Part shown: positions 1 to 60,104 of the stretch, piece by piece
Position numbering within the stretch: the stretch's first letter is position 1
Layout: the number at the start of each line of letters is the position of its first letter
Assembly (NCBI GenBank): GCA_963752255.1
Contig: CAVVXT010000014.1
Span: forward strand, 128,001 to 192,000
Length of the DNA stretch: 64,000 nucleotides
Direction: 5' to 3'
From: Nitrososphaeria archaeon
GTDB taxonomy: Archaea; Thermoproteota; Nitrososphaeria; JACIWG01
Position numbers and translations under genes: made by a program
Notes under the pieces: model-generated
The model's database searches: none
The model's input: only the letters and a program-made list of their open reading frames with translations
Told to the model about the DNA's origin: nothing

Positions 1-2488
1 TAGCCTGACTACCCACCTCGATGTGCGTGCTTTCTTCAAGGTCCGGGTCTATTGTAAAGTAGACTTTTATATCTATAATCGGTTCAGCCTTTTCTTTTAT
101 ATGGGATAGACTAATTTCAGATATTCTTTTACCATATTTTTTGATCTCCTTGTGCAGTTCCTCCTCTTCGAGAAGGTTTTTTTGTAACGTTTCAGGAATC
201 TTCTCCGGCGGAACAAGCAGCTTATTTGACACATCCTTTACTAAATCGGTCGTCGCCTGCACCTTCTCCAAGGCTGCGTCTCCTGAAGCAAAAATAATCC
301 TTTCTACGCCATCCTGGATGTGCTCTACTTTGACTATCTTTATTAATCCGATGTCTCCTGTTCGATCCATGTGCGTTCCTCCACATGCTTCGACATCATG
401 ATTTCCGATCTTTATTACTCTGAGCTCTTTTCCTGGTACTGCACCTCCTTGATATAGCCTATAACCGTATTTCTTTTCAGCCTCCAGCCTAGGAAGCTCG
501 TATACTTTAACAGGTATGTTTTCTCTTACGATTTCATTAGCTATTTTTTCTATTTTCTTGACTTCTTCATCTGAAATGTTAGAGTAATGCGTTATGTCGA
601 GTCTGGATTCTTTAATGTCCTTTTGTGCTCCCGCCTGCCATACGTGCTCTCCTAGCACCTTTCTAGCTGCGCCGTTTATAATATGTGTAGAAGTATGGTG
701 TATAGAGAGTGCTATTCTCCTATCTTTATCTACGTGCCCAGTAATTGTTGCGCCAATAGATGGTACGTTGTCTACAGTATGAGCGATTACTCCTCCTATC
801 TTCATTACTTGGGTGACATTTGCTTCCCCTTCTTTCCAAACAATCTTTCCTAGGTCTGAGAGTTGACCTCCACTTTCCGCGTAGAAAGCAGTTCTATCCA
901 AGATTATGTTATTTTTCCATGTAAATATTACTTTAGCCTCAAAATCGAACAGTCTTGTGCTCTTATAGAACAGCTTTTCGGTGAAAGGAATTTTTTCTTT
1001 TATTATTACTTCTTCTAACTCGTTTGTCTCTTCCCTTTGAATCTTGGGCGCATGCATCTTAATGATTGACGAGAAGAAGTCGGATGGGATTTCAACTTCT
1101 AGGCCGATCTCATTTGCCTTTTCTTTGACCTGCAAGGGGTGTATTCCGTGCGATTCGTAGAATTCTACAAGTGTGCTGTTCGGCACCGTCTTATTATTAC
1201 CCTTTTTTAACGAAAGTAGGGTCTTGGAAACATATTCTATTTCTCTCTCTAGCGTCCTTTGGTACTTCTTTGTTTCCACATCTGTGAGTTCAATTATTTC
1301 TCCTCTAGCCTCTTTCAATTGCTTAAAATGCGGTGACCAATATCTTATTTGGAGCTCCATTAAATCTAATAGTTTATCTTCTTTTGAGAACTCACTTAAT
1401 GTTCTATAGATTCTCCGAAGTAGCATTCTTGCGAGGTATCCTGTTTTAACATTAGAGGGCACAACCCCTTCGGAAAGGAGGAATGAAAGTGATTTTGTAT
1501 GATCTAGAACTGCGCAAAGTTTTTCGAATGGCTCAATAGCTTTTCGATATTCTTCAAGACCCATTCCAAGTCTTTCTGCGACTAATTTTCTACTGTTAAA
1601 CAACAGCTGTGGGAATTCTACTTTAAATGCGCCCGAAAGCCTTCCTGTCTCATATAGTACTTTTTCATCTACATTTATTCCGATCATTTCTGAGAACTTG
1701 GGTAGGAGAGGGCCAAATATCGCATGGAATGCTGTTGATTGACCAGTGCTTAACCATGCCCATCTTTCCATCCCGTATCCGGTGTCAACTGTTTTTACAG
1801 GTGTGGGGATCCAATTCCCGTTTTCCATCTTATAACACATGAAGACTAAGGTTGAGATTTCGAGCCCATCGATTACAGCCTCTACTGCTGGTCCAGCGTT
1901 TCCTCCACCAGACCAAAGGTGTTCCTTGTAGGAGACTTTTTCGCTTTTAACTCCAAAAACTTCTGTTAAAAGTTCATGATGATACGAAACCGTTTGATCC
2001 TTCCAATATACTTGATGGTCAGGGTAATTGAAGGCGTGAGCTCCTCCCATTTCAAATATCGTCAGATGTCTTCCCGACGTAATTCCAACATTATCAATAT
2101 CTTCAAACCTCAAGCAAGGTTGACTTACGACAAGGGGGTTTGCTGGTGGCGGAATCTCCCCGTTTGTAACATATGGTTGAAAGTCGATAATGCTCGCTAT
2201 TGTAAAGAAGAGGTCGTCTCGCCATCTAGCAACTACAGGACATGGGTTGATGATTTTGTGTCCTTTTGACTTAAAAAAATTAAGAAATGTACTTCTGGTC
2301 TTATTTAGATCGAGGTGTATTTTCGTCGGCGGATTATATATGAAACTATTTTCGACACAGGGGCTTTCTCCGCAGACGTCACTAATCTGCTGTGACCAAA
2401 AGTAGGAACCACACTTCTTGCATTGTTGTCTAAGAAAATGGTTCTCTTTAAAGTATGTTAAATCGAATTCTTTAACGTCCATAGACAT
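1..2488 (-). CDS. alaS: Alanine--tRNA ligase (3' end runs off the window)
   Basis: Read manually on the minus strand from ATG 2488 (MSMDVKEFDLTYFKENHFLRQQCKKCGSYFW). Motifs FTIASIIDFQP, VDTGYGME and editing-domain HHTSTH...ACGGTH. Absent from the ORF track because there is no stop in the window. Confidence 0.95.
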   Translation of the reverse strand, partial: MSMDVKEFDLTYFKENHFLRQQCKKCGSYFWSQQISDVCGESPCVENSFIYNPPTKIHLDLNKTRSTFLNFFKSKGHKIINPCPVVARWRDDLFFTIASIIDFQPYVTNGEIPPPANPLVVSQPCLRFEDIDNVGITSGRHLTIFEMGGAHAFNYPDHQVYWKDQTVSYHHELLTEVFGVKSEKVSYKEHLWSGGGNAGPAVEAVIDGLEISTLVFMCYKMENGNWIPTPVKTVDTGYGMERWAWLSTGQSTAFHAIFGPLLPKFSEMIGINVDEKVLYETGRLSGAFKVEFPQLLFNSRKLVAERLGMGLEEYRKAIEPFEKLCAVLDHTKSLSFLLSEGVVPSNVKTGYLARMLLRRIYRTLSEFSKEDKLLDLMELQIRYWSPHFKQLKEARGEIIELTDVETKKYQRTLEREIEYVSKTLLSLKKGNNKTVPNSTLVEFYESHGIHPLQVKEKANEIGLEVEIPSDFFSSIIKMHAPKIQREETNELEEVIIKEKIPFTEKLFYKSTRLFDFEAKVIFTWKNNIILDRTAFYAESGGQLSDLGKIVWKEGEANVTQVMKIGGVIAHTVDNVPSIGATITGHVDKDRRIALSIHHTSTHIINGAARKVLGEHVWQAGAQKDIKESRLDITHYSNISDEEVKKIEKIANEIVRENIPVKVYELPRLEAEKKYGYRLYQGGAVPGKELRVIKIGNHDVEACGGTHMDRTGDIGLIKIVKVEHIQDGVERIIFASGDAALEKVQATTDLVKDVSNKLLVPPEKIPETLQKNLLEEEELHKEIKKYGKRISEISLSHIKEKAEPIIDIKVYFTIDPDLEESTHIEVGSQA

Positions 2489-58587: not shown

Positions 58588-58860
58588 TTTAACATCACAA
58601 CACAAGTTATTTCTTAACCTACCTAATAATGGTAACGATCCAGTCTTACTTCGGATGCGAAATAACCATTCAATATTAGGGTTCGAGTGTGGACGGTTTA
58701 AAGTTGATGAAGATAAGATATGGACAAGTTCTGCTGGAGACTCCATCGTTATAAACTGTTTAATCTTTTTATCCCAAATATTCAAATAAGCCCTGAAGTT
58801 CAATTGATTTTACATTATCTTTAGTTTCCAAAACAACAGTAAATTTTTAATTACACAGTT

Positions 58861-58930
58861 ACGCGTACGAATGCGTGCGGGTGGCGGTCCTCCCGCCGTT
58901 CCGCGGAATAAACCCCGGGAGGGAGGTAAA
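58861..58930 (+). ncRNA. Candidate cis-regulatory pseudoknot (riboswitch-like) upstream of queT
   Basis: GC-rich island in AT-rich DNA: GGCGG/CCGCC stem, CCTCC(C) complementary to SD GGGAGG, inserted TTCCG/CGGGA hairpin. Confidence 0.5.
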
Positions 58931-59041
58931 TTGAATTTGGAAAAAGAAAGTAAAATAGAGTATAGTAAGAGGAAAGAATTCTCGCTATCTATTCTGATAA
59001 ACCTTTGATAAGGTGATTGATTAACGCAATCTAAAAAAGGA

Positions 59042-59500
59042 TTGAAACCTACTAAAATACAGCAAATTGGTATCACCGCTGTATTCGCTGCAACATACGC
59101 CGCACTTGGTTATCTATTCGCGCCCATTTCATTCCTCGCCATACAAGTTCGAGTCGCTGACGCAATTCTCCCATTAATGGCGTTGTTCGGTTGGCCGTCA
59201 TTAATAGGCGCCCAGTTAGGACTATTCATATTGAACCTGTCAAGCCCGCTTGGACTTATCGACATGACTCCTATATTTGTCTTCATTCCACCATCCTGGC
59301 TTGTAGTCAAATATGGTGTTAAAGCAGTGCCCGTATATGTCGCTTGCATAGGCGTCTGGGTTGGAATTGAATTGTTCCTCGTCTATAACGTGCCGCTACT
59401 GTTGACTATGCTTTACGTTGGTATAGGCGAATCCATAGCGCAAATAGGAATAGGATTTCCTCTCTACTACGCTGTCAAACGAAGGCTCGGATTGAAATGA
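59042..59500 (+). CDS. queT: QueT family transporter (7-deazaguanine precursor S-component)
   Basis: AVFAATYAAL...PISF.AIQVRVAD...G...G....NL.SPLG.ID; GE motif. Confidence 0.85.
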   Translation: MKPTKIQQIGITAVFAATYAALGYLFAPISFLAIQVRVADAILPLMALFGWPSLIGAQLGLFILNLSSPLGLIDMTPIFVFIPPSWLVVKYGVKAVPVYVACIGVWVGIELFLVYNVPLLLTMLYVGIGESIAQIGIGFPLYYAVKRRLGLK

Positions 59501-60104
59501 CTATAATCCGTTGTCTCGCGTGTCCATCGTTCGCTGTCGAATATCAGGCCATAAACCGCAAATACGGTTTTATGACCTTCCCACTTTTTTAGATAACGAA
59601 TTTATACGATTTCATAAAGCGCAAGTTAAACATTTCACTAAAATCCTCGACAAATACAGGGACAAAATTGAATATGCAGTTTATCCCGACTACGAATATG
59701 ACCAAATATGTTTGCTCACACTAAGGGTCTCCGACGCGCTTATACCTATAAGCTATAACAGGAGGGTAGGTAAGGCCGCTATATACGGCACAGCGCTAGG
59801 TGCCATGGTCTCCAACATCTTATCATTCTACGGCTTCTACGATCTGTTTCTTGGGACGGTCGCGAACTTCTTTGCGAGCTACGCCGCCTACATGTTTTCG
59901 AAGCGTGAGGGCAATCTATGGAAAGTCTTAGCGGCGGTCTCATCGTGCGCAGTAGTGATCTTCTTCATAGGCTTTCTCCTGTTCCATCTAATATTAAACT
60001 TGCCCTTGGAATCCTCGTTAATCGGGATATCCATCGGATCCTTCGTTTCGATCGTCCTGCTGGGAATGATCTTGATGGTCGCTTTGGGAAGGATATACCG
60101 ATAA
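59497..60104 (+). pseudogene. Chimera: frameshifted soluble N-terminal fragment joined to the C-terminal part of a second QueT
   Basis: ATG 59497 overlaps the queT stop; T6 frameshift at about 59585; FLDNEF..YAVYPD, then LRVSDAL..G.ALG...SN...FYG.YD. Confidence 0.6.

Follow-up and report, generated by a model that had tools for sequence, protein, structure and literature searches.

A conserved pseudoknot leader before archaeal queT genes as a candidate 7-deazaguanine riboswitch

The queT locus and its leader

The window analysed here is a 64,000-nt stretch of a Nitrososphaeria archaeon (GenBank assembly GCA_963752255.1, contig CAVVXT010000014.1, positions 128,001 to 192,000 of the forward strand). 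In it, two plus-strand queT genes are separated from a minus-strand Pirin gene by intergenic DNA that contains their leader, for which a riboswitch sensing pre-queuosine-0 (preQ0) or pre-queuosine-1 (preQ1) had been proposed from the letters of the window (the original prediction). As described there, a GC-rich block stands out from AT-rich surroundings: positions 58877-58926 (50 nt) contain 74% G+C, whereas the flanks reach 29% and 28% and the window as a whole 41%. The block, which like all parts of the element described below lies on the plus strand, follows a TATA-like box (TTTTTAAT, 58844-58851) and is composed, from 5' to 3', of GCGGGU, GGCGG-UCCUC-CCGCC, GUU-CCGC, an A-rich stretch ending in AAA, CCCCGG, two further bases and the Shine-Dalgarno (SD) sequence GGGAGG. 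TTG codons come next at 58931 and 58937, the former opening the predicted short open reading frame (ORF; 58931-59008), and the predicted queT is found at 59042-59500 (paralogue 1, 152 aa; Pfam PF06177, E 5e-19). A 197-aa ORF at 59511-60104 encodes queT paralogue 2 (PF06177, E 2e-16, from residue 70).

The element matches no Rfam 15 family. An Rfam 15 cmscan of the window at gathering score returned only two tRNAs, both away from the leader, and at E<=10 the region 58780-59080 gave no match on the element, the two weak hits in this region being to CRISPR-repeat models outside of it (59013-59048, E 7.8 and 9). Likewise, six loci from other lineages yielded no match for the motif at E<=1. The original prediction had noted that no consensus of a known class was recognisable, and indeed neither the preQ1-I, -II and -III models nor any other Rfam family matched. 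The minimum-free-energy fold of the window copy (-34 kcal/mol) is unremarkable as well, since its z-score is -1.53 and 18 of 200 shuffled sequences are equally stable. A single sequence therefore proves nothing here, and it is conservation that carries the case.

Two helices, a pseudoknot and invariant unpaired blocks

Covariation was counted on an alignment of 80 distinct instances of the motif, in which GTTCCGC, AACCCCGG and, for one scan, GGAGG were fixed by the search patterns and are thus invariant by construction. No pairs were counted on a MAFFT alignment of 127 instances, which mis-registers the columns of the ribosome binding site (RBS) between lineages. When all columns of the 80 sequences were compared against each other for mutual information, columns 17-32, 16-33 and 6-44 emerged as the top Watson-Crick-compatible pairs, and these define two nested helices, an outer P1 and an inner P2. 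In the window, the 5' strand of P1 (U-GCGG-G, 58876-58881) pairs with 58900-58905, its GCGG (58877-58880) facing the CCGC (58901-58904) of the 3' strand (CCGC-G, 58901-58905). Columns 7-10/39-42 of this helix are invariant, while the flanking pair (columns 6-44) is formed in 76 of the 80 sequences (GC 60, AU 5, GU 4, CG 3, UG 3, UA 1) and unpaired in the other four. The closing pair (columns 11-38) is G-U in 80/80, and as G-U pairs exist only in the plus-strand reading, the signal must be one of RNA rather than of a DNA operator.

The GGCGG/CCGCC stem that had been proposed for the element is present at 58883-58887 and 58893-58897, encloses the loop TCCTC and covaries as P2. Its columns 16-33 are paired in 78 sequences (GC, UA, CG, AU, GU) and columns 17-32 in 75 (UA, GC, UG), both sides of these two central pairs having changed in 12 and 14 sequences. 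An alternative GUG/CAC register for P2 is broken by the instances L109 and L042, whereas the chosen register covaries. Together, P1 and P2 are paired in 83.5% of cells and contain 67 double-change cells as opposed to 29.1 in shuffles, none of which (0/500) reached 67, although this comparison overstates the support, as many of the aligned sequences are close kin. The covariation score of 0.184 fell to 0.009-0.063 when the 3' strand was slid, and RNAalifold independently recovered P1 and the core of P2.

Two further hairpins of the original prediction did not withstand this comparison. Of the one thought to be inserted behind the stem, TTCCG..CGGGA, only three invariant pairs hold, whereas the other four fail in 50-75 of the 80 sequences; 52% of its cells are paired, which is the shuffle level, and no double change occurs. 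Its 5' half (CCG) belongs instead to P1, where it pairs with the 5' end of the element. The other is the 5' hairpin ACGCGT/ATGCGT, a possible fold of -5.4 kcal/mol that 45 of 200 shuffles match (z -0.68), and a comparable hairpin was found in only four of the eight family members folded. The promoter signal is phased with the motif. In 110 distinct instances, A+T content peaks at 85-94% between -33 and -29, counted from the first G of GCGGGU, over a background of 55-65%, and the TATA-like box of the window, the likely promoter of the leader, spans -33 to -26 relative to that G. From the spacing that is usual in archaea between TATA box and start site, we infer that transcription begins ~3-6 nt before 58877, so that the mRNA would open almost directly with the element. 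This fits additional P1 pairs at columns 4-6 and would leave the 5' hairpin probably for the most part upstream of the transcript.

The second structural feature is a pseudoknot. As originally predicted, CCTCCC at 58889-58894 is complementary to the SD sequence GGGAGG at 58921-58926; in the RNA, this anti-RBS consists of the P2 loop and the first bases of the P2 3' strand (CCUCC), and the SD serves as the 3' strand of the pseudoknot. Across the family, the loop-RBS helix, for which we used a purpose-made helix search, is five to eight base pairs long and shows compensatory variants. In the 80-sequence set only the flanks of this helix are informative, because GGAGG was fixed by the pattern, and of these, the pair 25-71 is formed in 15 of 16 sequences and the pair 26-70 in 52 of 78. 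In 24 instances without GGAGG, the instance's own loop-RBS helix reached a mean score of 6.23, compared to 4.87 and 4.69 when loop or RBS was cross-paired with the consensus partner, and 20 of the 24 scored above their own cross mean. Matched loop/RBS variants include CUCGCA/UGCGAG, CCUCGCA/UGCGAGG, CCACC/GGUGG and UUCGCA/UGCGAA, as well as UUUCCGAC with GUCGGAAG or GUCGGAAA. The pattern used on metagenomes fixed neither RBS nor loop, and here GGAGG was present in 88 and CCUCC in 87 of 100 distinct instances, with a helix score >=5 in 99; all 12 instances lacking GGAGG were compensated, e.g. by ACAUCUC facing GAGAUGU.

In most members the loop measures only 3-5 nt, and the anti-RBS extends from it into the P2 3' strand by two or three nucleotides at the top of the stem (58893-58894 in the window). 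Full P2 and the pseudoknot are therefore mutually exclusive, and this exclusiveness amounts to a switch design; the lower part of P2 could persist, stacked under the pseudoknot helix. Of the topology originally proposed, the RBS-sequestering pseudoknot thus stands, while the P4-like insert and the 5' hairpin fall away, and CCGC forms an outer stem with the 5' GCGG.

Further conserved blocks lie outside of the helices. A single unpaired U separates P1 from P2 (58882; column T12, invariant in both the 80- and the 127-sequence alignment). The junction GUU (58898-58900) retains its G and its last U, which wobble-pairs with G58881, and appears as GAU, GUGCU or GAGUU in some relatives. Between P1 and P2, the junction measures one by two nucleotides. 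An A-rich linker (58906-58912), ~5 to 13 nt long among relatives, ends in an invariant AAA and leads into the invariant block CCCCGG (58913-58918), in which variation among model-found relatives is limited to the first C (A or U in some), two sequences with CCCCAA aside. Overall, ~20 unpaired positions are invariant, or nearly so, across phyla, and the U after P1, the G-U(-U) before the P1 3' strand, AAA and (C/A/U)CCCGG are unchanged even in a divergent Asgard subgroup. Since the few variants reveal no compensating pairing partner, these blocks presumably provide the binding pocket and tertiary contacts. Pairing of CCCCGG with the 5' CGGG, with the CCG before GUU or with P2 was considered as well and found no compensating variant (L175, L176, L178).

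These blocks also bear on whether a ligand is needed at all. RBS-masking helices exist that work without one, and the unexceptional fold energy of the window copy would suit a constitutive translation damper, a 5' structure that stabilises the mRNA, or an RNA thermometer for queT. Yet neither a damper nor a thermometer requires invariant unpaired nucleotides, and the motif is confined to the genes of one pathway, queC and queE among them, instead of accompanying membrane proteins generally. A ligand-independent leader thus appears very unlikely.

Downstream genes and distribution of the motif

At the loci of relatives, the motif almost always precedes queT, typically with the queT start codon directly behind the RBS (6-12 nt in most other loci). 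Among the genome-scan matches listed, downstream ORFs of >=90 aa were assigned by Pfam to QueT in 60 of 64 cases, to radical S-adenosylmethionine (SAM) proteins in two and to QueC in one, leaving one ORF without a family; behind model-found instances, 53 of 55 ORFs encode QueT and one a radical-SAM protein. Over both sets, 113 of the 119 ORFs submitted to Pfam are QueT, the genome-scan part being that of the matches listed. The QueC assignment is firm (NCBIfam TIGR00364, 195 bits at a cut-off of 150), and the radical-SAM proteins, together with a partial ORF in L123, have QueE families as their best NCBIfam matches, below the curated cut-offs. Among the 124 metagenome and viral pattern matches listed, 97 of 115 ORFs match a purpose-built QueT profile, and a radical-SAM ORF follows the motif in L212. 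Hence, the motif is a conserved, structured 5' leader with covariation that is confined to the genes of a single pathway.

At two true instances the ORF behind the motif has no Pfam family at E<=0.1, namely 277 aa at L030 (5727-6557, minus strand) and 245 aa at L245 (246-980, plus strand). Both are candidates for unannotated genes of 7-deazaguanine transport or metabolism. In a sister genus, a different arrangement was observed: the start codon behind the controlled RBS belongs to a 7-codon ORF (MEKIEIV-stop in L007, 1440-1480; equivalents in L009, L010 and L011), and QueT begins slightly further downstream, by a few bases, in a different frame, L011 carrying TTA in place of the expected TTG. 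This may represent coupling through an upstream ORF.

QueT homologues were detected in 12 of 61 related genomes, and nine of the 12 relatives' loci inspected carry the motif upstream of QueT, the remainder being L003, L004 and L006. The queT of L003, from the same class as the window, has a long perfect hairpin in its leader (CUGCUAGAAGCC ... GGCUUCUGCUAG; ~1950-2130, minus strand), possibly a different regulatory RNA. In the source genome itself, a third queT on another contig is preceded by a second copy of the motif (L013). A three-block pattern scan of species-representative genomes matched at least 119 loci. Among the 119 matches listed, 75 have the 5' half, which the pattern left unconstrained, and two more are cut by a contig end, making 77 archaeal instances that, by their record titles, stem mostly from Bathyarchaeia, with several from Nitrososphaeria and two from Asgard metagenome-assembled genomes; the remaining 42 matches arose by chance in GC-rich bacterial DNA and lack the 5' half. 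A scan of metagenomes returned at least 120 loci, with 105 true instances and 15 chance matches among those listed, and the four pattern matches in viral contigs were all GC-rich chance hits devoid of anti-RBS and A-rich block. Thus, the motif was found only in archaea, as the 42 bacterial, 15 metagenome non-motif and four viral matches among those listed lack the rest of it.

A covariance model (R1) built from the 80 distinct instances recovers the window copy at E 4e-14 and the second copy at E 2e-13. Within the class of the window, it matches 15 of 151 genomes, with eight of nine and six of nine in two families and 0/81 in the largest one; within the phylum, 31 of 151 genomes match at E<=0.01, 28 of them below 1e-5. 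In the Asgard phylum, 25 of 151 genomes match, or 23 once two tRNA false positives are removed. These latter hits (L200 and L203, in genomes G368 and G312; E 0.005-0.01) fall on the 3' halves of tRNA genes, and R1 matches above ~1e-3 call for inspection. The ~55-nt motif is thereby known from Nitrososphaeria, Bathyarchaeia and Asgard archaea. In a divergent Asgard subtype (L189-L199, L201 and L202), two nucleotides are inserted into the GUU junction (GUGCU or GAGUU), the A-rich linker is longer, a GCGAGG RBS is matched by a CUCGC loop, and P2 is down to ~2 bp. Altogether, the comparison of queT upstream regions from related archaea that had been suggested as a check of the original prediction found the motif conserved, with covariation in P1, P2 and the pseudoknot.

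The same data speak to a leader that is bound by a protein. In principle, the invariant blocks could equally be the recognition site of a regulator or of a pathway enzyme such as the transglycosylase, which would bind the single-stranded blocks and drive the choice between hairpin and pseudoknot; the 5' GCGGGU and GUUC do resemble tRNA features, and R1 cross-matches two tRNA genes. However, no conserved neighbouring regulator gene was seen at the motif loci, where the motif usually stands alone with queT, and its retention in both Thermoproteota and Asgard archaea would demand an equally conserved protein partner. Small size, a pseudoknot at the RBS and transporter or biosynthesis genes behind it rather match known metabolite riboswitches, and we consider a protein-binding leader improbable.

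In the window itself, the queT operon appears rearranged. The ORF next to the RBS (from 58931 or 58937 to 59008; 25 codons from the first TTG) ends in ..KRKEFSLSILINL, which resembles ERKTFTLSIVIAALYAAL at the start of the QueT of L007, a sister-genus locus, and relatives have a conserved TTGGAAAAA start to which the in-frame TTG at 58937 corresponds. The short ORF thus looks like a relic, namely the N-terminus of the queT that the riboswitch first controlled. Paralogue 1 continues in the frame of this putative relic, with three stop codons in between, yet shares no more than 30% identity with the QueT behind the motif in L007. Paralogue 2, on the other hand, is 56% identical to this QueT over 130 residues (67-196), lacking its first helix, and judged by this similarity that portion is its orthologue; the first 66 residues of paralogue 2 lie outside this likeness. 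With a relic N-terminus, an intervening paralogue and an orthologue devoid of its first helix, the original gene seems to have been split by the insertion of another queT. A genome of the same genus retains the relic ORF along with a paralogue-1 gene.

A candidate 7-deazaguanine sensor

What the element might sense is indicated by the genes around the pathway. At 94.7% completeness, the source genome has genes for a tRNA-guanine transglycosylase (202 bits) and for a PTPS/QueD-like protein, along with three queT genes and two motif copies, but no convincing queC (25 bits at best, inside a 429-aa ORF) or queE (21 bits for a QueE query), and QueF stays below the Pfam cut-off. The organism therefore looks like a preQ0 salvager, which makes preQ0 the most likely ligand, and as the motif precedes queC and queE in other lineages, end-product feedback by preQ0 is the simplest reading. 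The weak QueF-family match (22 bits, below cut-off) lies in a 191-aa ORF that adjoins the PTPS/QueD-like gene outside the window (contig C12 of the source genome, G000; 153136-153921, minus strand) and could be a GTP cyclohydrolase I-fold or QueF-like archaeosine enzyme.

Archaea incorporate preQ0 directly through the archaeosine tRNA-guanine transglycosylase (ArcTGT), in line with the transglycosylase gene of the source genome, and with no QueF above the Pfam cut-off, free preQ1 is not expected there. These points, and the good fit of preQ0 to end-product feedback on queC and queE, render it unlikely that the same architecture serves another ligand such as preQ1, 7-carboxy-7-deazaguanine, archaeosine base, guanine or queuine. 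Still, the gene context (queT, queC, queE) indicates the 7-deazaguanine pathway and no single intermediate, the substrates of archaeal QueT may not be limited to preQ0, and there is a bacterial precedent for breadth in the preQ1-I aptamers, described as solved with preQ0 as well as with preQ1 (PMC11625349).

Taken together, covariation and the association with que genes support the idea of a deazaguanine-sensing riboswitch in an archaeon, its ligand being read from gene context, and we regard the element as a probable 7-deazaguanine riboswitch of an undescribed, archaea-specific class of RBS-sequestering pseudoknots. In the proposed mechanism, the RBS would be free as long as P2 is fully closed. 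In the alternative state, the top of P2 would open and the loop would pair with the RBS, giving an H-type pseudoknot that stacks on lower P2 and P1. The proposed ligand is a 7-deazaguanine and most likely preQ0, the substrate of the archaeal tRNA-guanine transglycosylase; by binding at U58882, GUU, AAA and CCCCGG, it would stabilise this pseudoknot and so keep the gene behind the element, for preQ0 transport or biosynthesis, from being translated.

Besides the kinship among the aligned sequences, several points weigh against this interpretation. The blocks fixed by the search patterns can be tested only in the 58 model-found instances, and the most highly conserved nucleotides never vary, so that covariation cannot reveal their roles. 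RNAalifold also offers a local CCCC:GG-GG hairpin that would mask the RBS; this hairpin is unproven, as its pairs never vary, and a GGAAG RBS (L170 and L171) leaves only two of them. In the window, the element is linked to queT only indirectly, as the start codon that it would control leads into no more than the 25-codon relic ORF, and control of the present queT genes would call for putative translational coupling or an effect on the mRNA. Lastly, ligand binding and gene control are predictions from sequence, and the direction of switching is assumed by analogy to bacterial preQ1 classes.

Comparison with these classes helps to place the element. As with preQ1-II (the COG4708/queT motif, RF01054), which precedes queT, acts solely at the level of translation (shown or predicted) and buries the whole SD in a pseudoknot with an upstream hairpin loop (PMC11625349), our motif is located before queT and pairs its complete SD with the loop of an upstream hairpin. 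Unlike preQ1-II, however, it has no Rfam match even at E 10 and no supported P4 insert, it possesses an extra outer stem around the anti-RBS hairpin, and it is archaeal with preQ0 as likely ligand, whereas preQ1-II is given as restricted to Bacillota in that source. The pocket described there for preQ1-II and -III (gamma mode) combines a trans Watson-Crick cytosine, a uracil reading the minor groove, two inclined adenines and U-A-U triples (PMC11625349); the consensus of our 80 sequences has no U-rich strands from which such triples could form. Thus, in spite of the similar context and full RBS occlusion, the element is not a member of preQ1-II.

For preQ1-I (RF00522, types 1-3), a G-C-rich P1 followed by an A-rich strand, a U and a C at the junction, RBS nucleotides in the second helix and a link to queuosine biosynthesis genes are described (PMC11625349). 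The motif shares the small pseudoknot, the G-C-rich P1 directly followed by an A-rich strand, the conserved U and C at the helix junction and the RBS nucleotides in the second helix. It differs in size (~55 nt compared to ~34), in having an entire hairpin in the place of the class I loop L2, in pairing the RBS with the loop of this inserted hairpin rather than with L1/L2, and in lacking an Rfam match. The UC/AC specificity dinucleotide that precedes the P1 3' strand in preQ1-I is not evident; GUU occupies this position unless the first C of CCGC is unpaired, and as the C-G pair concerned is invariant, covariation is uninformative on this point. PreQ1-III (RF02680), described from Ruminococcaceae and metagenomes only (PMC11625349), likewise precedes queT and carries its anti-RBS in a hairpin loop, which docks on the 3' tail. 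Yet at ~100 nt, with five helices and a pocket far from the RBS, it differs from the ~55 nt, two helices and one pseudoknot of the present motif, which the RF02680 model does not match.

The set of genes behind the motif (queT, queC, queE-like) is the one controlled by preQ1 riboswitches in bacteria (PMC11625349). Archaea are reported to use few riboswitch classes, all of them bacterial and mainly those for thiamine pyrophosphate (TPP) and fluoride (PMC5473149). Like these sensors of metabolites or ions, our element would act in cis from an archaeal leader, but while the TPP and fluoride classes are bacterial ones that also occur in some archaea, the motif was found only in archaea. Our literature searches brought up neither a riboswitch class of archaea's own nor a description of an archaeal queT/preQ0 leader motif, though supplementary motif tables might list one; the main text of a 2026 preprint on noncoding clusters contains no preQ, queT or queuosine (10.64898/2026.10.21.760802).

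On balance, and with some reserve, we incline to see here a riboswitch class that only archaea possess, the first of this kind, and with it a fourth and structurally distinct 7-deazaguanine sensor that is tuned to preQ0, sits at the start of the mRNA, toggles between a hairpin and an RBS pseudoknot in Nitrososphaeria, Bathyarchaeia and Asgard archaea, marks widespread preQ0 salvage and tags the L030 and L245 ORFs. If so, the motif either predates the split of these three lineages or has moved between them together with queT, a preQ0 salvage economy would be widespread in uncultured archaea, and the L030 and L245 ORFs would be new players in the pathway. Being compact (55 nt), easy to synthesise and spread from relatives of ammonia oxidisers to Asgard archaea, this RNA would make metabolite sensing by archaeal RNA directly testable. 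As a genomic marker, the motif could point to preQ0 salvage and to unannotated genes of archaeosine metabolism in uncultured archaea. Beyond this, the element would add a fourth solution to the recognition of 7-deazaguanines and would show SD occlusion to be a regulatory principle in these archaeal lineages.

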